Shown one piece after another: positions 3,624 to 53,445 of a stretch of 64,000 bases of DNA; position 1 is the stretch's first letter; every line of letters begins with the position of its first letter. The position numbers and the translations under genes are program-made. The notes under the pieces are model-generated. The model saw only the letters and a program-made list of their open reading frames with translations, was not told where the DNA came from and ran no database searches. The stretch is from an uncultured Gemmatimonadales bacterium (GTDB lineage: Bacteria; Gemmatimonadota; Gemmatimonadetes; Longimicrobiales; RSA9): NCBI GenBank assembly GCA_963816355.1, contig CAWFKH010000001.1:10981-74980 (forward strand). Reading direction: 5' to 3'.

Positions 3624-5897
3624 TCAGTTCACGGGCCGCTGCGTCCCCATGATCCGGTACACGATGTCCTGGGGGAACTCCGGCGGGAAGTTCGTGCCGG
3701 TCATCGCGTCGGTGAGCGTGCAGCTGCCCGGCCCGCTCGGGCACATGATCGTGCCGGTCTGCATGAGATGGATGTCCGGGTACTGGCCGCCGGCGAAAGT
3801 GCCGGTCCCGGTCGCCGTGAACGCGCCGGTCGCGGGATCGAACATGCCGGTGAGCGGCACCCACGGCGACGGGCCGGTGACGGTGATCTGGTCGCCGGCC
3901 ACCACGATGTCGAGCGTCTGCACCGTCGGCATGCCGATGAAGGGCTCGTGGTTGCTGGGATCACTCTGCACCGTGATCTGCACGTCGTACGTCCCGTTCT
4001 GCGGCGGCGGAGCGCACGCGTTGCCCGGCGCGCCGGGGGTGAAGCTGCCCGCGTGGGCGGCGGCGGGCACGATGCCATCCGCGCCCGCAGCGCCCGCGGC
4101 GCCCGGACCCTTGCCGTCGCCGCCGTTCCCGCCGTTGCCCACGGCGCTCACCGTCTGAGCGCCATCGGCGCCCGCCGGAGCGCCGCCGCCGCCGCTGCCC
4201 GGACCGCCGCTCGCGCTCGCGCCCTTGCCGCCGTCGCCGCCCGGGTCGTCGGGGCAGCGCGGCGCGCCGTTGCCGCCGGTGCCGCTCTCGAACACCGCGT
4301 CGCCGCCCGCGCCGCCCGCGCCGATGAGGGCGTCGTTCTGGTCGCGCAGGTCGGCCGTGCCGCCGTCGCCGCCGTGCGCCGCGATCGCGCCCGCGGCCGC
4401 GCCCGGCGGGTGCGCGTCGTCGCCGTCGCCGCCGTTCCCGACGTGCGCCGTCGCCTTGCCGCCGGCGCCCGCGTCGCCGCCCTGCACGCTCACGCCGGCG
4501 AGCCCGGTGACGGCGCCGCTCGAGGCGAGCTGCTTGTCCGGCGTGCCGCCGCCCGCGCCCGCCGTCGCGGTCGCGTCGCCGCCGCCCTGCGCGGCGTCGC
4601 CCCGCGCGGCGGCGTCGACGCCGTCGGCGCCCGTCGCCGTGGCGGCACCGCCCGCGCCGCCGTGGCCCACGCGCAGCGTGAGCGAGCCGGCGTCGATCGA
4701 GATCGAGCCGTTGGCGCGTACCTCGATGAGGCCGGGCCGGCCGCCATCGCCGCCGGTCGCCGCGGCCGGGGGCGCCTTCGCGGCCGTCGCATCGCTCGTC
4801 GCCGTGGCGACCGCGCTGCCGCCGTCGCCGCCGTCGCCGGACGCGATGCTGTTGCCGCCGCCGGAGAAGCTGATGTCGCCGGTCGCGCGGACGCGGATGC
4901 GGCCGCCGTCGCCGCCGTCGCCCCCCTTCGCCTGGGCGGACGAGGCGCTGGTGTGGCTGCCGTCGCCGCCGTTGCCGCCGCCCTGCCCGACGACCGCGAC
5001 GGCGCCCTGCACGTCCAGGCTGCCGCGGCACGACAGCGTCCACGTGCGGCCGTCCTTGCCGGCCGTGCCGTCCTGGCCGTCCGATCCGTCGCGCGGCGGG
5101 TCCGCCATGAACGAGCGACCCGCCACGATGCAGAGCGCGCCGTTCGCCTGCGGCTCGATCCCCGCCGCGAAGATCGGCGCGCCCGCGACCGTCGGGAAGT
5201 CGGCGTCGCCCAGCGTCGGGTCGTTCTGGATCTCGACGTCCCCCGAGCTGGCGAGCGTGCCGGCGCCGAGCGTGAGGTTGCCGTCGCCGACGATCTTCAG
5301 CTCCGGCGGGCTGTCGCCCGCGTCGCCGCTGCACGCGTTGCTCACGTCGCCGGCGATCGTCACGTCGCCTTCGCCGACCAGCGACAGCTCGACGCAGTCG
5401 CCCTTCAGGTCGCCCTCGATGTCGATCGGCCCGCTCGAGCTCAGCGTCGCCTGGCCGGTGACGGTCACCGTCACGCCCGCGGGGATCGTGATGCTGGCGT
5501 AGCTCTTCGACCCCTCGACGTTCGTGTCCGCCGTGGGATTGAAGGCGACGGGCGCGACCGTGACCTCGGCGCTGCCGCTCTTGCCGCCCGCGGTCGCGGT
5601 GATCGTCGCCGTGCCCGGGCCCACCGCCGTTGCCAGGCCGGCCGCGTCCACCGACGCGATCGCGGCCGCGCTCGACGACCACGTCACGGTGCGGCCGGTG
5701 AGCGTGTTGCCCGCCTCGTCACGCACCGTCGCCGTGAGCTGCTGCGTATCGCCGACGCCCAGGCTCGCGGTCGCCGGCGTGACCTCCACGCTGCCGACCG
5801 GGGGCGGGCCCGACGGCCCGGAATCGCCGCCGCACGCGGCGGTCGCGAACAGCGCCGTCGCCAGCGCCGTCGCTCGGATGGAGCATCTTCCAATCAT
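3624..5897 (-). CDS. Lipoprotein with a Big_2 Ig-like domain followed by a long Gly/Asp-rich (GGDGG, GNGGDG) repeat region
   Basis: Track ORF of 757 aa. Lipobox ALFATAAC-GG. Big_2-like block VEVTPATASLGVGDTQQLTATVRDEAGNTL...VTWSSS...ATITATAGGKSGSAEVTV. This is followed by about 450 aa of GGDGG/GGAGG/GNGG repeats and a non-repetitive C-terminus. Confidence 0.75.
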   Translation of the reverse strand: MIGRCSIRATALATALFATAACGGDSGPSGPPPVGSVEVTPATASLGVGDTQQLTATVRDEAGNTLTGRTVTWSSSAAAIASVDAAGLATAVGPGTATITATAGGKSGSAEVTVAPVAFNPTADTNVEGSKSYASITIPAGVTVTVTGQATLSSSGPIDIEGDLKGDCVELSLVGEGDVTIAGDVSNACSGDAGDSPPELKIVGDGNLTLGAGTLASSGDVEIQNDPTLGDADFPTVAGAPIFAAGIEPQANGALCIVAGRSFMADPPRDGSDGQDGTAGKDGRTWTLSCRGSLDVQGAVAVVGQGGGNGGDGSHTSASSAQAKGGDGGDGGRIRVRATGDISFSGGGNSIASGDGGDGGSAVATATSDATAAKAPPAAATGGDGGRPGLIEVRANGSISIDAGSLTLRVGHGGAGGAATATGADGVDAAARGDAAQGGGDATATAGAGGGTPDKQLASSGAVTGLAGVSVQGGDAGAGGKATAHVGNGGDGDDAHPPGAAAGAIAAHGGDGGTADLRDQNDALIGAGGAGGDAVFESGTGGNGAPRCPDDPGGDGGKGASASGGPGSGGGGAPAGADGAQTVSAVGNGGNGGDGKGPGAAGAAGADGIVPAAAHAGSFTPGAPGNACAPPPQNGTYDVQITVQSDPSNHEPFIGMPTVQTLDIVVAGDQITVTGPSPWVPLTGMFDPATGAFTATGTGTFAGGQYPDIHLMQTGTIMCPSGPGSCTLTDAMTGTNFPPEFPQDIVYRIMGTQRPVN

Positions 5898-47611: not shown

Positions 47612-47624
47612 CGCTCGCTCGCTC

Positions 47625-47852
47625 GGCGAGGGGAAGCTCGCTGCGCGAGGGGAGCCGGCTTCGCCGGGGAAGCTCGCCGGGCGAGGGAAGCCGGCTTCGC
47701 CGGGGACCTGCTTCGCAGGGGAAGCTCGCTGCGCGAGGGAAGCCGGCTTCGCCGGGGGGCCTGCTTCGCAGGGGAAGCTCGCTGCGCGAGGGAAGCCGGC
47801 TTCGCCGGGGGGCCTGCTTCGCAGGGGAAGCTCGCTGCGCGAGGGGACGGTA
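47625..47852. repeat. Intergenic array of about 12 short GC hairpins (53-bp period, about 4 copies), GGGAAGC-type unit starts
   Basis: cctgcttcgcagg recurs at 47707, 47760 and 47813. The unit is GGAAGCTCGC-TGC-GCGAGG / GAAGCCGGC-TTC-GCCGG / GGGGCCTGC-TTC-GCAGG. It shares gagggaagctcg... with the 25.8 kb array. Confidence 0.85.
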
Positions 47853-48381
47853 CGGGCGCGCGCCCGCGCGTCGGCGCCTCCGGTCCCTGCTCCCGCGGGG
47901 GGCGTCCCGCCTTTCCGGCGCTCCGCCCCGGGGCGGCGTGGCCGCCACCGAACCGGCGCCCGCCCCGCCGCGGCACGCCGCCGGCCGGAAGATCCCATCC
48001 CTACTTGACATGGCGCCCCTCCCTCTTCACCTTTAGCGTCGATGGCGTGTCGTTCGCGGTGACGACCCGCCTCAACCGGAAAAGAGAATCAACCCGTTAT
48101 CCTGTTCGGCTGTGCGACGTCAGCACCGCGGCCCCGGTGGGTCAGGCCCGGTCGCTCGACGGCCCCTCGCCTCTCCCCCGAGCGCGCCAGCACGCTTGCA
48201 GTGTACCACCCGGGTACGCCCAGTCCCGGACCAGTGCCGCGCGCGCGACCACAGTTATTTGAAACTATGGATTAGCCCCCTCGCTTGCGAGAGCGGAGCC
48301 ACCAGCGGAGTCCTTCAGCGGAGCGCCGCAGCCCACCCTAGCGGATCCGGGCTGACGCAACCCGAAAGGAGGTGAGCTGAG

Positions 48382-48456
48382 TTGACGGCTTTCTTTGCCG
48401 CCCTTTTCGCTGGTTTCGCGAAGCTTCTTATGGCGGGTGTCACCATCATTCATTAA
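48382..48456 (+). CDS. Candidate 24-aa hydrophobic peptide (TTG start)
   Basis: AGGAGG (48367-48372) lies 9 nt upstream of TTG 48382. Encodes (M)TAFFAALFAGFAKLLMAGVTIIH-TAA, 33 nt upstream of ATG 48490. It has no homology support and could be chance. Confidence 0.3.
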   Translation: MTAFFAALFAGFAKLLMAGVTIIH

Positions 48457-48595
48457 GTGAGTGAGGGGGCTTTTCTTTCTTAAGACATCATGCCAAAGAA
48501 GATCGCCCTACTCTTTGCTGCCGTAGTTGTCCTCGGCGCAGCATCGTTCTGGCCGTTGCCGCTTGCCGACATTGCGGCGCCTAAGCGGCACGGCG

Positions 48596-49825
48596 ATGGG
48601 CGGCTTGTTGACGCTGACTGTCTTGGGGGTGCTGGCCGAGTTCCTTCCAGTTCAGTACAGTGTCGAAGGGCGCGAAGCGTCATCGTCCATCTCCTTCATC
48701 CCAATGTTCGTCATCGGACTGTCGTTCCATCCGACGACGACCGTATTGGCTACGGCGCTGATAATTGGGACAGCCTCTACGCTTGGCCATAAGCTCCCTG
48801 CTTGGAAGACGATATTCAATGTTTGCCAAGTCGCTCTAGCTGTCCGCCTTGGTTCAGAGTTATACTATTATCTGTCCACTTCAACTCTGCCGATTCTACA
48901 TTATGATGTAGTAGCACTTGCAGGTCTTTCGCTTACGTTCTTTATCACAAATACAGTACTCGTCTCCTTTTTCTATTCCATAGACCAATCGACTCCGTTT
49001 CTTCCAACGCTCAAACGAATTGCCGGACCGGGTGGTTCCAATCTCTATTATGACCTTCTAGTTAGCCCTCTAGCTCTGCTCGTATCATACGTATATCGAA
49101 GCAGTGGCTTGAGTGGCGTACTATTGTTAGTATTGCCACTTTACATCCTGCGCCATTCTTACGTCGCCATGCTGCAGCTCCAACAGGCGAATCGCGCCCT
49201 CCTGAAAGTATTGATCAAGGCCATTGACACGCGCGACCCTTATACGTCTGGTCATTCTCTCCGTGTATCACTCTTAGCCCGAGCGATAGCGGAGGACATG
49301 GGCGTTCGGGGGAGACGTCTCGATGATGTCGAGACGGCTGCTCTGTTGCACGACATTGGAAAGGTCGACGGAATATACGCGGAGTTGATTCGGAAGCCGC
49401 ACGCTTTGTCCGCAGATGAAGTCAAAGTTATTCGAACACACGCGACAAAGGGAGCGGACTTCGTTGGCGGGCTAAGGACGTACAGCGACGGCATAGTTCT
49501 GAGTATCAGGCATCATCACGAAAAATATGATGGTTCAGGGTACCCAAATGGTCTTCGCGGCTCTGAGATCCCACTTGCGGCACGCATAATTCAGATTTCC
49601 GATAGCATTGACGCGATGCTTTCTGACAGGCCTTACCGATCTGCCCTGTCTCTTGAGCAGGTTCACACGGAGCTTAGGCGGTGCGCGGGAAGTCAGTTTG
49701 ATCCAGGAATCGTGGACAACATGCTTGAGAGGGGATCCCTCACACGAATGCTGCCGACCCTCCGGCTTCATGGGGGCAAGACTGCAGCGGTTCTCCCGCG
49801 CATTGAAGCGTCAGCGGCTGTCTGA
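48596..49825 (+). CDS. Membrane-anchored HD-GYP domain protein (probable c-di-GMP phosphodiesterase)
   Basis: Track ORF 48527..49825. Multi-TM N-terminal domain, then HD-GYP catalytic motifs YTSGHSLRV, LLHDIGK, HHHEKYDGSGYPNGL, ISDSIDAM. The start is uncertain: ATG 48596 (MGGLLTLTVLG), or ATG 48490 in another frame (MPKKIALLFAAVVVLGAASFWPL), which would need a frameshift near 48590. Confidence 0.85.
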   Translation: MGGLLTLTVLGVLAEFLPVQYSVEGREASSSISFIPMFVIGLSFHPTTTVLATALIIGTASTLGHKLPAWKTIFNVCQVALAVRLGSELYYYLSTSTLPILHYDVVALAGLSLTFFITNTVLVSFFYSIDQSTPFLPTLKRIAGPGGSNLYYDLLVSPLALLVSYVYRSSGLSGVLLLVLPLYILRHSYVAMLQLQQANRALLKVLIKAIDTRDPYTSGHSLRVSLLARAIAEDMGVRGRRLDDVETAALLHDIGKVDGIYAELIRKPHALSADEVKVIRTHATKGADFVGGLRTYSDGIVLSIRHHHEKYDGSGYPNGLRGSEIPLAARIIQISDSIDAMLSDRPYRSALSLEQVHTELRRCAGSQFDPGIVDNMLERGSLTRMLPTLRLHGGKTAAVLPRIEASAAV

Positions 49826-49849
49826 TTCAGCTTACTTATAGGAGGCGCC

Positions 49850-50053
49850 GTGCAGACTAGACATTGTCCCTCCTGTGGCTCCGATCACTTGGAGCGCGCC
49901 ACTTGCGGGCCGGCTGAGTTGCCGCTTGCGGACGGGAGTGCAATTCGCCTGCTAGTACTTGGATGCTTGAATTGTGGGCACGTTAGTCTATGGATCCCAG
50001 AGGCCGACGATGGAAGTGGCGCAAAGTCCTTGGGGAGTCAGTCATTCTTATAG
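49850..50053 (+). CDS. Small zinc-ribbon protein (CxxC...CxxC)
   Basis: Track ORF of 67 aa. GTG start 4 nt after AGGAGG (49840-49845). Motifs CPSCGS ... CLNCGHVSLWIP. Confidence 0.6.
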   Translation: MQTRHCPSCGSDHLERATCGPAELPLADGSAIRLLVLGCLNCGHVSLWIPEADDGSGAKSLGSQSFL

Positions 50054-50471
50054 GCCTAGCGCAGCAGTTGTCAATGTCCTAGAAGATACGCTATCTGCTG
50101 GTGGTAAGTGCTTACCCGCTCAGATTGAGTACTTCCCGTCGAGCCGCTCCGGGGGTCAACTAGCAGACAGTCTATAAGTACTTCATCCAAAGAAGAATAG
50201 ACGGGTCCCCAAATGGTCGGCCCGAGCGCGGCTCGGTGCAGATCGATCGTCCGGCACGGCGTTCCTCCACGAGGATCCGGAGCCAGTGCTACTTCAGGGC
50301 GGACGTACAAGGTTGCGAGACTTCGTCCGGTCGATGAAGCCGCGCCTTTATCCGCGGCGTGAGGGAGCGTGTCGAGACGCTTCCCGGACAGCAGACGAGA
50401 TCGACGTCTCGACTTCAGCGGCTGCCGTTGCCGGGCGGTGAGACCGGAGCCGTTCGTGCGTTTTCCCTTTC

Positions 50472-50500
50472 TTGACAGGAGCCCCGGGAGGCGGGAGATT
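50472..50500 (+). promoter_or_regulatory. Candidate sigma70-type promoter for the RHH-nuclease-methylase operon
   Basis: TTGACA (50472-50477), 17-nt spacer, GAGATT (50495-50500). Downstream direct repeats GACGCTGTCG (50504) and CGACTGTCG (50524) lie before the ATG at 50543. Confidence 0.4.
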
Positions 50501-50542
50501 TGCAGACGCTGTCGCCCCTTGTTCCGACTGTCGAAATTGTAG

Positions 50543-50752
50543 ATGCCCACCGGCAAACGCCGCGTTGCGATCAACCTGCCTTACGGCGAATACGAGGAAA
50601 TGGCCGCTATCGCGGACGAGCACAACGTCTCACTCGCGTGGCTAGGCGGCCAATTCATGGAACGCTACCGCGAGGAATCTTTGCAGCTTCCCCTTCCGCT
50701 TCGGACCAACAGAAGTTTAGAACGAGGACCGGGAGCACATGCCGCGCAGTGA
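50543..50752 (+). CDS. Ribbon-helix-helix (CopG/Arc-type) DNA-binding protein
   Basis: Track ORF of 69 aa. KRRVAINLPYGEYEEMAAIADEHNVSLAWLGGQFMERY fits a beta-strand / helix / helix RHH pattern. It overlaps the next gene by 14 nt. Confidence 0.7.
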   Translation: MPTGKRRVAINLPYGEYEEMAAIADEHNVSLAWLGGQFMERYREESLQLPLPLRTNRSLERGPGAHAAQ

Positions 50753-52109
50753 TCTCCCCTTTGGCAGCGAGTTTTCGCCCGACCAGATTGATCTGGCCAC
50801 GCTACTGGATCTCGCGCACCAGCACGGCGAGGACTGGAAAGGATTCGAGGCCGCCGTACGGGCGCGCTATTTCGAGAATTACAAGACGTCGGACTACAAC
50901 AAGGACAAGCTCGCCAATAACGCGAAGCTCTCGTTGCGCGCCTATGGCCTGATCGGCGCGAAGGATGCCACGCTGACGGAGGCCGGATTAGCTCTCCACG
51001 CTTTGCATCAGGATGAGAGGCTCCTGCTAGATGCGTTTGCCAAGCACATTTTAAAGCACTGCCAGGGTATGAACTTCGTGCAGTGCCTCCTCGATATGCA
51101 GGCGGCGGGCGAGAGGATCACCCTCTTGAGCCTCCGCCGTGGTCTTGAGGAGCGGGGGCTTTCCGTGCCGCGCGGCGGGAAGCACATGAGCACGTTGCGG
51201 CTCTGGCTGGACCGGGCCGGTGTCATCGTAAGCGGCTACCGCGTGGATCAGGCCCGTCTCAACGATATCCTTGGCGTTAAAGTGGAGGAATTCGAGGCTC
51301 TGGCAAGCTTTTCGGGCGAGCAGAAAGCCTTTCTGAAGACGCTCGCGAACATGGAGGGTGGCCGGCCGCATCTGTCGAACGATATCGAGCGGCTTGCCAC
51401 GGCGACCTACGGCATCACGTTCAACGAGAAGAACCTGCCCAAGCAGGTTTTGTATCCGCTGGAGAAGACGGGCTACATCGCGCTTGAACGCGGCACACAA
51501 GAGCCCGGGCGCGGCGCTAAGCCTTTTTTGGTGACGGCAACCGAGAAGCTCGATGCCGACCTGATTGCACCGCTCATTGCGCAGATGGAGCGCCAGATCC
51601 AGGCTGATATCCGGCCGCTGCTTCGCAAGCCGCTTTCAGAGATCTTGGAGGAGCTGACGGAGGAGGACGCGCACACACGCGGCCTTGCCCTCGAGGCTCT
51701 CGCCTTCAAGCTCATGAGGCTCGTCGACCTCACCTATGTCGCGACCCGTCTTCGAGGCAGCCAGACCGGAGGGGCGGAAGTCGATCTGATCTTTGAAGGC
51801 GCCCGTCTGGTGTTCTCCCGCTGGCAGATCCAATGCAAGAACACGCGGAGCGTGTCGCTGGACGATGTTGCCAAGGAAGTGGGGCTCACGCACTTCCTGA
51901 AAAGCAACGTGATCGTGATGGTCTCGACCGGGACGGTCGGCCCGGAGGCGCGCCGCTACGCCAACAAAATCATGCGGGACTCTAACCTGTGCATCGTCAT
52001 GGTGGACGGTACCGACCTCGAGCTAATCGAGGAACGGCCGGCCGGAATTGTCGATGTCTTCAGCCGCGAGGCCCGTCATGCGATGGACCTAAAAAGGCTC
52101 GAACTATAA
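50739..52109 (+). CDS. Restriction endonuclease-like protein: winged-helix-like N-terminal region plus C-terminal Mrr-type PD-(D/E)xK nuclease domain
   Basis: Track ORF of 456 aa. The C-terminus GLALEALAFKLMRL...GGAEVDLIFEG...WQIQCKNTRSVSLDDVAKEVG matches the Mrr catalytic pattern (GxD...D...IQxK). The roughly 330 N-terminal aa are unassigned. Confidence 0.8.
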   Translation: MPRSDLPFGSEFSPDQIDLATLLDLAHQHGEDWKGFEAAVRARYFENYKTSDYNKDKLANNAKLSLRAYGLIGAKDATLTEAGLALHALHQDERLLLDAFAKHILKHCQGMNFVQCLLDMQAAGERITLLSLRRGLEERGLSVPRGGKHMSTLRLWLDRAGVIVSGYRVDQARLNDILGVKVEEFEALASFSGEQKAFLKTLANMEGGRPHLSNDIERLATATYGITFNEKNLPKQVLYPLEKTGYIALERGTQEPGRGAKPFLVTATEKLDADLIAPLIAQMERQIQADIRPLLRKPLSEILEELTEEDAHTRGLALEALAFKLMRLVDLTYVATRLRGSQTGGAEVDLIFEGARLVFSRWQIQCKNTRSVSLDDVAKEVGLTHFLKSNVIVMVSTGTVGPEARRYANKIMRDSNLCIVMVDGTDLELIEERPAGIVDVFSREARHAMDLKRLEL

Positions 52110-52125
52110 AGGGAAGGAACAACGG

Positions 52126-53445
52126 ATGCCGCAGAACGGCGTGAACAGGGCTAAGCCGTTCCACACAACCGCGTTCGGGCGAATCATCTGCGGCGATAGC
52201 TTGCAGGCGCTGTCTGCCCGTGCAGAAGGCTCGGTTAATCTCATCATGACCAGCCCGCCCTTCGCGCTCGTGCGAAAGAAGGACTATGGAAACGTCGAAG
52301 CCAACCAGTATATAGACTGGTTTCGCCCGTTCGCGGGGGAGTTCAAGCGCGTCCTCACCAATAATGGCAGCCTCGTTATTGACATCGGCGGGTCCTGGAA
52401 GAGGGGCTATCCGACCCGAAACCTGTATCACTTCAAGCTGCTTGTTATGTTGTGCGAGGAGTTCGGGTTTCATCTTGCGCAGGATTTCTACTGGTGGAAT
52501 CCGTCAAAGCTCCCGACGCCAGCAGAGTGGGTAAATATCCGCCGCATCCGGGTTAAGGATGCGATCAACACAATCTGGTGGTTATCGAAAACGCCTTGGC
52601 CGAAGGCCAGCAACCGGCGAGTCCTACAGCCTTACAGCGACAGTATGCAGGATCTTCTCGAAAGAGGCTATAAGGCGAAGAAGCGCCCATCCGGGCACGA
52701 CATCAGTGAGAAATTTAGCATCAACAATGGAGCGGCGATCCCGCCCAACCTGATCGCCATACCCAACACGGAAAGCAACAGCTTTTATCTGCGCTACTGT
52801 GAGGAGAACGGCCTAAAGCCCCACCCAGCGCGGTTTCCAACGGATCTACCAGAGTATTTCATTCGGATGCTGACAGACCCGGGCGACTTGGTCGTGGATC
52901 CGTTCGCAGGAAGTTGCGTCACCGGCGAAGTGTCGGAGCGCCTTCAGAGAGAGTGGGAGTGCATTGAGCTTCTGCCGGCGTATTGCGAGGCTGCCCTTGG
53001 ACGTTTTATTCGCCCTGCCGAAGAAACGGCGCGACCTGACCGGAACCCCGGCGACCCTTCCAACTACTATCGCATGCCGCATCCGGGCATTCTTGTGGAA
53101 CGGCAACACCGGCGCGCCTCTTCACGAGGATGGTGGGAGGAGGCGCCGCCTCGAGTCGAAGGCGAAGGGAAAGAACGGCAAGGCGAGCACGGTCCCCCCC
53201 CCCCCCCCCCCCCCTCTCCCCCCCCTCCGTGCCTCTCCCCCCCCCCCAGGCTCGCTGCGGAAAGGCGGCTCATGTCCAGCGCCCACCCGCCACCGCGTAC
53301 CATGTCGCCCGCGCCGGGAAGCGACGCGGCCCAGCATGATACAGCCCCGGCGCGCGCCTGCGACCGGCGCATCCCGGCCGGACCGAGCGGCCCGGGTGAC
53401 CACCCCGTCGCTGGGCGCATCGACGTCCGATGGCTGCCCACGTAG
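52126..53445 (+). CDS. Beta-class DNA methyltransferase (N4-cytosine/N6-adenine, SPPF type); C-terminal ~130 aa is probably read-through
   Basis: Track ORF of 439 aa. Motif IV LIMTSPPFALVRKKDYGN comes before motif I DLVVDPFAGSCVTG, which is the beta-class order. The recognisable domain ends near AALGRF (about 53010). After that the ORF runs through the poly-C tract (PPPPPPPSPPPP) into GC-rich sequence. Confidence 0.8.
   Translation: MPQNGVNRAKPFHTTAFGRIICGDSLQALSARAEGSVNLIMTSPPFALVRKKDYGNVEANQYIDWFRPFAGEFKRVLTNNGSLVIDIGGSWKRGYPTRNLYHFKLLVMLCEEFGFHLAQDFYWWNPSKLPTPAEWVNIRRIRVKDAINTIWWLSKTPWPKASNRRVLQPYSDSMQDLLERGYKAKKRPSGHDISEKFSINNGAAIPPNLIAIPNTESNSFYLRYCEENGLKPHPARFPTDLPEYFIRMLTDPGDLVVDPFAGSCVTGEVSERLQREWECIELLPAYCEAALGRFIRPAEETARPDRNPGDPSNYYRMPHPGILVERQHRRASSRGWWEEAPPRVEGEGKERQGEHGPPPPPPPSPPPPCLSPPPRLAAERRLMSSAHPPPRTMSPAPGSDAAQHDTAPARACDRRIPAGPSGPGDHPVAGRIDVRWLPT
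53194..53247 (+). repeat. Homopolymeric C tracts: C21, TCT, C8, TCCGTGCCTCT, C11
   Basis: Direct count: C run 53194-53214 (21 nt), 53218-53225 (8 nt), 53237-53247 (11 nt). It coincides with the switch from island GC to host GC. Confidence 0.95.

Follow-up and report, generated by a model that had tools for sequence, protein, structure and literature searches.

A probable Type II restriction-modification module with a candidate ribbon-helix-helix regulator in an uncultured Gemmatimonadales bacterium

Gene organization of the module

The DNA analyzed here (hereafter, the window) is a stretch of 64,000 nucleotides (nt) from an uncultured Gemmatimonadales bacterium (GenBank assembly GCA_963816355.1, contig CAWFKH010000001.1); coordinates are positions in the window, and the genes under study are on its + strand. 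Three open reading frames (ORFs) on this strand encode a protein of 69 amino acids (aa) that resembles ribbon-helix-helix (RHH) regulators, a 456-aa nuclease and a DNA methylase. The first-pass annotation, made from the sequence alone, had described an atypical operon resembling a restriction-modification (R-M) system. The three genes and the motifs it named are all present in the window, and the 14-nt overlap it noted between the RHH gene (50543-50752) and the nuclease gene (50739-52109) is exact (50739-50752); the methylase gene starts at 52126, 16 nt past the nuclease stop. The operon can hardly be called atypical, since R-M pairs like this one abound and all three genes occur together in numerous lineages. 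We read it as an R-M module of Type II, acquired by horizontal transfer and ordinary in kind. Its features are as follows.

50472-50500, + strand: candidate sigma-70 promoter, from a reading of the sequence; −35 box, spacing and AGATT kept in the relatives L081 and L082
50501-50533, + strand: operator-like region that follows the −10 box and precedes the RHH start, with CTGTCG at 50509 and 50528 and TTGTTC in between
50543-50752, + strand: RHH regulator gene, 69 aa; ORF aligned with 12 homologues from other loci
50739-51668, + strand: N-terminal region of the nuclease, aa 1-310, predicted tandem winged-helix modules (AlphaFold2 model m114a2532df39)
51687-52109, + strand: C-terminal Mrr-type PD-(D/E)XK domain of the nuclease (aa 317-427) and terminal helices (Pfam Mrr_cat)
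52126-53091, + strand: intact part of the methylase, aa 1-322, a beta-class methyltransferase of the M.PvuII family, predicted to modify cytosine at N4 (1boo, PADLOC, Pfam)
53090-53187, + strand: frameshifted methylase tail (DNA alignment with L081, tails of 73 loci, ORF list)
53194-53247, no strand: C-rich tract at the right edge of a low-GC island (Tandem Repeats Finder and sequence; GC content steps from ~0.56 to ~0.73)

The nuclease and its family

The C-terminal part of the nuclease matches the Pfam family Mrr_cat (PF04471) over aa 317-427 (E 2.7e-8, 34.4 bits against a cutoff of 21), in agreement with the Mrr-type domain that had been called from the motifs GGAEVD (aa 344-349) and WQIQCK (aa 362-367). 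The catalytic residues are conserved: E319, E347 and K367 are invariant in both alignments of the family, of 38 and 58 sequences, and D349 and Q365 are invariant in the smaller alignment and at least 90% conserved in the larger one. This pattern fits the D...QxK active-site variant described for Mrr. In Foldseek searches, the domain matches MspJI (4f0q, E 4e-4), its best match in the PDB, as well as AF1548, NucS and PspGI.

The N-terminal region presents another facet of this protein. With 58 diverse sequences as input, AlphaFold2 modeled the whole nuclease with a predicted local distance difference test score (pLDDT) of 87, and the N-terminal 312 residues with a pLDDT of 89.6 and a predicted template modeling score (pTM) of 0.82. 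In this confident model, helix-helix-helix-hairpin units at about aa 19-90, 93-170 and 190-270 form the tandem winged-helix modules that had been suspected from the sequence and, as had also been suspected, they correspond to no described family: the N-terminus has no match in Pfam, NCBIfam or PADLOC, and the Foldseek comparison of its model with the PDB gave no significant match (best E 0.025). The partial matches are all to winged-helix proteins, namely, MarR and PadR regulators, RTP, forkhead, Orc1/Cdc6 and a Pol III subunit (chain O, C82), and the highest overall query-normalized TM-score, 0.33, is that of FokI (2fok; E 0.2, not significant). At the sequence level, the nuclease has no relative among the PDB sequences, R.PvuII included. 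Judging from the model, residues 1-310 are presumed to constitute the DNA-recognition domain.

The family is large. More than 2,258 database clusters match the nuclease, the best 120 of which are 456-470 aa long and 73-100% identical to it. When residues 1-315 were compared with 1.84 billion cluster representatives, 457 relatives were recovered, down to 28% identity, and in the full-length relatives listed (about 440-540 aa), the match covers the whole N-terminal region and is located as in the query. Among 196 matches in genomes, 80 loci (L001-L080) were kept. They come from Proteobacteria, Chloroflexota, Acidobacteriota, Actinomycetota, Planctomycetota, Nitrospirota, Cyanobacteria and several archaeal phyla, with nucleases 53-77% identical to the one in the window; such values in bacterial as well as archaeal phyla suggest that horizontal transfer is frequent. 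Some of the carriers may be sponge-associated or marine metagenome-assembled genomes, to judge by record titles (e.g. Candidatus Poriferihabitaceae).

The methylase and its coupling to the nuclease

The methylase carries motif IV (TSPPF, aa 42-46) ahead of motif I (DPFAGS, aa 258-263) and matches Pfam N6_N4_Mtase over aa 37-290 (E 2.2e-38) and the PADLOC MTase_II model PDLC03323 (1.7e-119). Aligned with the structure of M.PvuII (1boo_A), it yields an E value of 4.6e-108 over aa 9-295 (6-295 of M.PvuII), a match that takes in the whole stretch between motifs IV and I, including the target-recognition region. The earlier assignment to the beta class, of the M.PvuII type, is supported by the motif order and these comparisons; to judge by homology to M.PvuII, the target is most likely CAGCTG, with cytosine modified to N4-methylcytosine.

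The nuclease and the methylase travel together. At 76 of the 80 loci, no more than 350 nt separate the nuclease gene from a gene for a PvuII-type methylase, which at 71 loci directly follows it; at one more locus the methylase gene is found ~2 kb away on the opposite strand, and three loci gave no methylase match (L035, L063 and L077, of which L063 has a nuclease match that ends ~50 nt from the end of the locus). Even a distant pair, on a plasmid of the haloarchaeon Haloplanus, with a nuclease of 29% identity, retains the adjacent methylase, 46% identical to that in the window. A cultured carrier, Roseivivax marinus, has the pair on a plasmid, annotated as 'restriction endonuclease' and 'site-specific DNA-methyltransferase'. 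The more alike two nucleases are, the more alike their methylases tend to be (rho 0.56 for pairwise identities; the pairs are non-independent, so that a p-value has no meaning), and in one database protein (P0230, 879 aa), a PvuII-type methylase and the nuclease are naturally fused.

This coupling bears on a puzzle raised by the first-pass annotation, which had asked how self-restriction is avoided if a domain best known from methylation-dependent (Type IV) enzymes is paired with a methylase. PF04471 defines a catalytic fold and nothing more, and Type IV enzymes have no cognate protective methylase, whereas here the methylase adjoins the nuclease in nearly all loci and is fused to it in P0230. 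Adjacent, co-inherited genes for a nuclease and a methylase are the hallmark of Type II systems, and the coupling to a co-diverging PvuII-type methylase, together with the fusion, argues for a methylation-sensitive Type II enzyme. The puzzle thus dissolves: we read this as a classical Type II system, probably specific for CAGCTG, with no Type IV paradox.

The frequency of CAGCTG sites is consistent with this specificity. In 718 kb of flanking DNA from the 80 carriers, CAGCTG is the most depleted of the 64 palindromic hexamers (98 sites observed against 232 expected, an observed/expected ratio, O/E, of 0.42), in a comparison that covers carriers only. A Markov model predicts 30.6 sites for the host part of the window, which has 8, and dinucleotide shuffles of the whole window give 15.8, again against 8 observed; inside the R-M genes CAGCTG is not depleted (rank 14 of 56). 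We regard the depletion as supportive only.

The ribbon-helix-helix protein and its distribution

The reading of the small upstream gene as one for an RHH protein, as had been proposed, rests on its homologues rather than on the window's own protein, which stays below the Pfam cutoff. Homologues at 39-52% identity pass the threshold of RHH_1 (26.5 and 30.5 bits; cutoff 20.5), most of the 234 database relatives carry PF01402, and the strand-helix-helix pattern is conserved in the window's protein, with helix B four residues short. The RHH protein has no NCBIfam or PADLOC match. In Pfam, neither it nor the homologues, which match RHH_1 and RHH_3, hit any helix-turn-helix (HTH) family, and the earlier remark that this is not the HTH type of the controller (C) proteins of R-M systems is supported. 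We found no RHH controller of an R-M system in the open literature searched, where RHH proteins are mentioned only for toxin-antitoxin systems and contrasted with C proteins (PMC3874152).

The RHH gene is an optional, co-inherited part of the module. Within the 450 nt that precede each nuclease gene, profile searching detected it at 15 of the 80 loci (two visibly degraded), and wherever found, it abuts or overlaps the nuclease gene. In the closest relatives of the window's module (L081 and L082), with nucleases 90% identical to that of the window, the 14-nt overlap is the same; in peat or soil contigs (L085-L088), the overlap is 4 nt. It is also 4 nt on the Roseivivax marinus TCYB24 plasmid (NZ_CP090156, L083), where the RHH ORF (3741-4004), with the operator pattern described below at 3779-3794, is absent from the plasmid's gene table; this strain is a cultivable carrier of the three-gene form. 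RHH identity follows nuclease identity (rho 0.51), and a 540-aa database protein (P0145) is a natural fusion of an RHH_1 domain with the nuclease.

In the C-terminal tail of the RHH proteins, a motif, (N)PELPL, is nearly invariant amid variable residues; in the window it reads QLPLPL (aa 50-57, 50690-50715). The motif is presumably similar to short linear motifs that bind proteins, one example being QLSLPL of Hda, which binds the clamp, and its conservation keeps an antitoxin-like, protein-binding role of the RHH protein under consideration.

Not all loci have an RHH gene at the regulator position. In two (L073 and L079), a different small protein of 70-74 aa, with no Pfam match, is encoded there, ahead of the nuclease, and this protein may represent a second, unrelated type of regulator. 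About 30 nt upstream of the 70-74-aa ORF in L073 lies a perfect 24-nt palindrome, ATGGATACACAAATGTGTATCCAT, and the L079 element has two mismatches.

In L085-L088, the RHH gene and the R-M pair are followed by genes for MTaX1 and an SNF2-type helicase and preceded by genes for a ubiquitin-like protein, E2 and E1/JAB; with such neighbors, the module in these contigs sits in a defense island.

Promoters and candidate operators

The promoter candidate of the window consists of TTGACA (50472-50477), a 17-nt spacer and GAGATT (50495-50500). The elements proposed by the first-pass annotation are in place, and L081 and L082 keep the −35 box, the spacing and AGATT, in front of which, upstream of TTGACA, their sequence is unrelated to that of the window; as a promoter, however, the candidate is below the threshold of the scan tool, the second hexamer matching the −10 consensus at only 3 of 6 positions.

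The direct repeats that had been offered as operators fared worse. They reduce to a 6-mer, CTGTCG, at 50509 and 50528, which is not conserved in L081, and by our estimate the chance of a repeated 6-mer in a 45-nt stretch is about one in five; the CTGTCG repeats were rejected as an operator, being statistically weak as well as unconserved. In L081 itself, there are direct repeats of another kind, AACACC-N4-TACACC, 10 nt apart, and the half-sites aligned with these in the window are AGACGC and TCGCCC.

Across the RHH-carrying loci, operator-like elements recur in forms specific to subgroups of the regulator. The RHH group nearest to the window has direct repeats, ATGCACCA and ATGAACCA, 10 nt apart over the −10 region. 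A second group has GGTGT-N5-ACACC upstream of the RHH gene. In the group that we denote by 'MARPRGNRKEAR', the element GTAAAGTGGTGCAATAAACACC is flanked by a −35 box resembling TGGACT and a −10 box resembling TAAACA and ends 5-8 nt before the ATG, a layout that predicts a transcript with little or no leader. In 15 loci, the pattern TGGTGNNNWAAAYAYC is present as a single copy, in every case no more than ~30 nt ahead of the start codon of the RHH gene, and the remainder of the 0.98 Mb searched has none; this pattern replaced an earlier candidate, GGTG-N8-CACC, which was discarded as wrongly spaced and unspecific. L085 contains two copies of the operator-like element, 75 nt apart. As with genes for C proteins, then, the RHH gene is located immediately upstream of the nuclease gene, with candidate operator-like repeats at its own promoter, and the position of the repeats over the −10 box or the transcript start suggests autorepression.

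State of the copy in the window

Compared with L081, the three genes show dN/dS values of 0.22 (RHH), 0.10 (nuclease) and 0.08 (methylase), so that purifying selection has acted on each of them. The ORF of the nuclease is intact and keeps all invariant residues, and the methylase is intact over its catalytic core (to about aa 296). The other parts of the module are in a poorer state; the RHH deletion, the methylase frameshift and the missing stop codon, like the low-GC island described below, had been overlooked by the first-pass annotation. The RHH protein lacks four residues of helix B, a deletion that is evident against L081 and absent from the 52 other members examined, and has a Gly in place of a near-invariant Arg. 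In the methylase, alignment of the DNA with L081 reveals an extra T at 53090/53091 that shifts the frame after residue 323, so that the conserved tail WNGNTGAPLHEDGGRRRR (WNG...DGGRRRR; tails of 73 loci) is now in another frame. Similarity to the relatives stops at 53187, just before the 54-nt C-rich tract, with no stop codon in either frame; the tract (53194-53247) comprises ~21 C, TCT, 8 C and, later, 11 C, and the methylase ORF reads through it as polyproline. The methylase had been taken to end at 53193, where there is no stop; due to the 1-nt insertion and the truncation at the C-rich tract, the ORF continues to 53445. The tract could be a true junction or an assembly join, and the extra T, likewise, could be real or an assembly error.

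Some of the relatives have methylases of only 304-336 aa that are devoid of the tail, so that the R-M pair of the window may still work. The RHH protein is a different matter: given that it fails the Pfam thresholds, has lost four helix-B residues and faces diverged half-sites, this copy may not act as a repressor. Altogether, on the sequence, the regulator and operator of the window look degraded and the methylase tail damaged, with both catalytic cores intact.

Proposed mechanism and alternatives

The scenario that we favor, and consider fairly probable as a whole, is that of a Type II module in which a CAGCTG methylase and a cognate nuclease are combined with an RHH autorepressor. It builds on what was observed of gene content, homologies, predicted folds, linkage, fusions, operator-like motifs and purifying selection. 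Under this scenario, the methylase, by homology, would methylate CAGCTG at N4 of its inner cytosine in both strands, and the nuclease would read the same site, when unmethylated, via its N-terminal winged-helix array and cut with the C-terminal Mrr-type PD-(D/E)XK domain (E319, D349, Q365-x-K367), probably after dimerizing. An RHH dimer would bind the short repeats that overlap the promoter or the 5' end of its own gene and repress the RHH-nuclease transcript, thereby capping nuclease expression; the RHH protein is, in our assessment, a probable autorepressor that limits the expression of the nuclease, and as such would use a different fold for the task that falls to the negative arm in an HTH C protein. 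For the methylase gene, which comes last as in EcoRI, we presume a separate promoter inside the nuclease gene; in EcoRI, the R-then-M order indeed comes with methylase promoters within the nuclease gene (PMC3141266). We infer the site specificity, the methylation sensitivity, the repression and the internal promoter.

Several observations weigh against this scenario or parts of it. On the side of the enzymes, the CAGCTG call rests on 60-odd % identity to M.PvuII and on a site depletion measured in carriers only, another hexamer, CTCGAG, ranks second in the carrier flanks and is nearly as depleted (O/E 0.44), and no characterized or biochemically studied member of the nuclease family was found in the literature; the window's methylase is without the conserved tail and a stop codon, which may or may not matter. 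On the side of the regulator, about 80% of the loci are without an RHH gene, so the system can exist without it; the operator positions were placed by eye against consensus promoters; the window's protein matches only RHH_5 in Pfam, below threshold (E 0.03, 14.5 bits against a cutoff of 26), and repression by this copy may not operate in the host; and the (N)PELPL tail motif is left unexplained by simple repression.

The tail motif is also the point of departure for an alternative in which the RHH protein is an antitoxin-like, bifunctional partner, with the RHH domain on the operator and the C-terminal tail on the nuclease, which would be used as the target of inhibition or as a co-repressor, in the manner of type II toxin-antitoxin modules. 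An RHH domain with a short tail is the domain layout of RHH antitoxins, the near-invariance of (N)PELPL/QLPLPL amid variable residues would be accounted for, the RHH gene is directly upstream of, and overlaps, the gene of the 'toxic' nuclease, and the fusion P0145 joins the two naturally and has a weak Pfam match to CopG_antitoxin (E 0.004). The module already has an antidote, however, in the methylase, most loci do without the RHH gene, and fusions of HTH C proteins with nucleases exist as pure regulators (PMC3850674); we therefore view this alternative as unlikely. It is also conceivable that the RHH protein acts as a true C-like delayed activator, whereby a weak promoter needs the RHH protein and the nuclease appears after the methylase has acted. 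The poor −10 box of the window (GAGATT, 3 of 6) would fit, as would the order of overlapping regulator and nuclease genes, which mirrors pvuIIC-pvuIIR (PMC2997769, PMC2175313), and the two operator elements of L085 recall paired C-boxes. Yet the repeats overlie the −10 box, follow it or fall within the spacer, as is typical of repressors, and not upstream of the −35 box, and the RHH regulators that a 2013 review compared with C proteins are strictly repressors (PMC3874152), which makes activation quite unlikely.

A further alternative denies the R-M pair its Type II function, either because the nuclease, as a Type IV or IIM enzyme in the manner of Mrr and MspJI, depends on modified DNA and the methylase modifies a site that is not attacked, or because the system in the window is dead and the methylase effectively an orphan. 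MspJI-family genes can adjoin methylase genes, MspJI is the best structural match of the catalytic domain, and the RHH gene and methylase tail of the window show decay. Nevertheless, both versions appear very unlikely: the adjacency of nuclease and methylase is near-universal and co-diverging down to 29% nuclease identity, a methylase-nuclease fusion exists, CAGCTG is depleted in the flanks of carrier genomes, the N-terminal domain is unlike SRA-type readers in Foldseek searches, and the nuclease ORF is intact and keeps all invariant residues at a dN/dS of 0.10. At the opposite end, one might envisage that the RHH proteins are a second, unrecognized class of R-M controllers, antitoxin-like, with an RHH domain on the operator repeats and a tail contacting the nuclease or another host protein so that the level of nuclease feeds back on its own transcription, and that the nuclease is a widespread, structurally new CAGCTG enzyme; this is a speculative view, to which we assign a low probability.

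Comparison with known systems

The PvuII system is a close counterpart of the autorepressed Type II module proposed here. The methylase is a close homolog of M.PvuII (1boo E 4.6e-108), the target is probably the same, CAGCTG, and in both systems a small regulator gene is located upstream of, and overlaps, the nuclease gene. The nucleases differ: R.PvuII is a small (~157 aa) homodimer, whereas the enzyme encoded here consists of 456 aa, with winged-helix modules and an Mrr-type domain. So do the regulators, RHH here and Xre-type HTH in PvuII, and the gene arrangement, with three co-oriented genes here and a divergent methylase gene in PvuII. The EcoRI operon shares with the present one a nuclease gene upstream of a co-oriented methylase gene across a short gap, but its enzymes are unrelated, and it is controlled not by a protein regulator but by antisense RNA; an internal promoter is presumed here.

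With C proteins in general, the RHH proteins share the position upstream of, and overlapping, the nuclease gene, with which their gene is presumably co-transcribed, the conserved repeats at their own promoter and the occurrence of natural fusions of regulator and nuclease, described for HTH C proteins (PMC3850674) and found here in P0145. Unlike C proteins, they have the RHH fold, and hence would be missed by homology surveys (such as PMC2632904); their operator position suggests repression only, and they are present in about one fifth of the loci. Given that the fold defines C proteins, the RHH regulator should not be filed as one. In fold, small size, short tandem or inverted repeats at the own promoter and a short C-terminal tail, it is similar to RHH repressors and antitoxins (CopG, Omega, ParD, PaaR), from which it differs in having an R-M pair as its partner, where theirs is a toxin or a gene for plasmid copy control.

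As for the nuclease, the combination of a winged-helix recognition domain with a separate PD-(D/E)XK cleavage domain is also that of FokI, PaqCI and SdaI, with PaqCI among the structural matches, but the matches to FokI and PaqCI are not significant (E 0.2-0.5), and homology is not established; in contrast to Type IIS enzymes, the single PvuII-type methylase argues for a palindromic, not an asymmetric, site. Mrr and MspJI share with it the catalytic family PF04471 and the D...QxK variant of the active site, but they require modified DNA and are without a protective methylase, whereas the nuclease here is paired with, and sometimes fused to, one.

The novelty of these findings is moderate: the R-M module is of a known kind, and it is the fold of the RHH regulator that appears new to R-M control. 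The regulation of R-M systems has been studied almost exclusively through HTH C proteins, HTH domains borne by methylases and antisense RNA, and an RHH regulator that recurs, with clear operator candidates particular to each subgroup, would be a new answer to the problem of 'methylase first, nuclease later', one that surveys by homology to C proteins would miss. No paper that deals with this family of nucleases, or with R-M control by an RHH protein, was retrieved in our literature search; the genes may already be listed as putative enzymes in REBASE, which was outside that search. The nuclease family is among the more abundant uncharacterized restriction enzymes in environmental bacteria and archaea, has a recognition domain without a solved relative, and may provide an alternative enzyme for the PvuII site.

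Genomic context

For this particular genome, the module represents a small, acquired and partly eroded defense island. It lies in a segment of low GC content (~48000-53200; 0.47-0.63 against 0.71-0.79 on either side), at the edges of which scans found no tRNA gene, Rfam family or flanking direct repeat. DNA similarity to L081 extends from 50541 to 53187, at 85.5% identity, which makes the three genes alone the mobile unit; in L081, the module is inserted between a NikA/MobC-like gene and a transposase gene. The part of the island to the left of the promoter (48000-50470) also holds a membrane HD-GYP-type gene (48527-49825; MASE9 and HD_5) and, at 49850-50053, an ORF for a 67-aa zinc-ribbon protein. 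These genes do not accompany the R-M module in L081, and so the island looks composite. Just to the left of the island, at 47617-47845, are about four copies of a 53-nt GC-rich tandem repeat that consists of short palindromic units.

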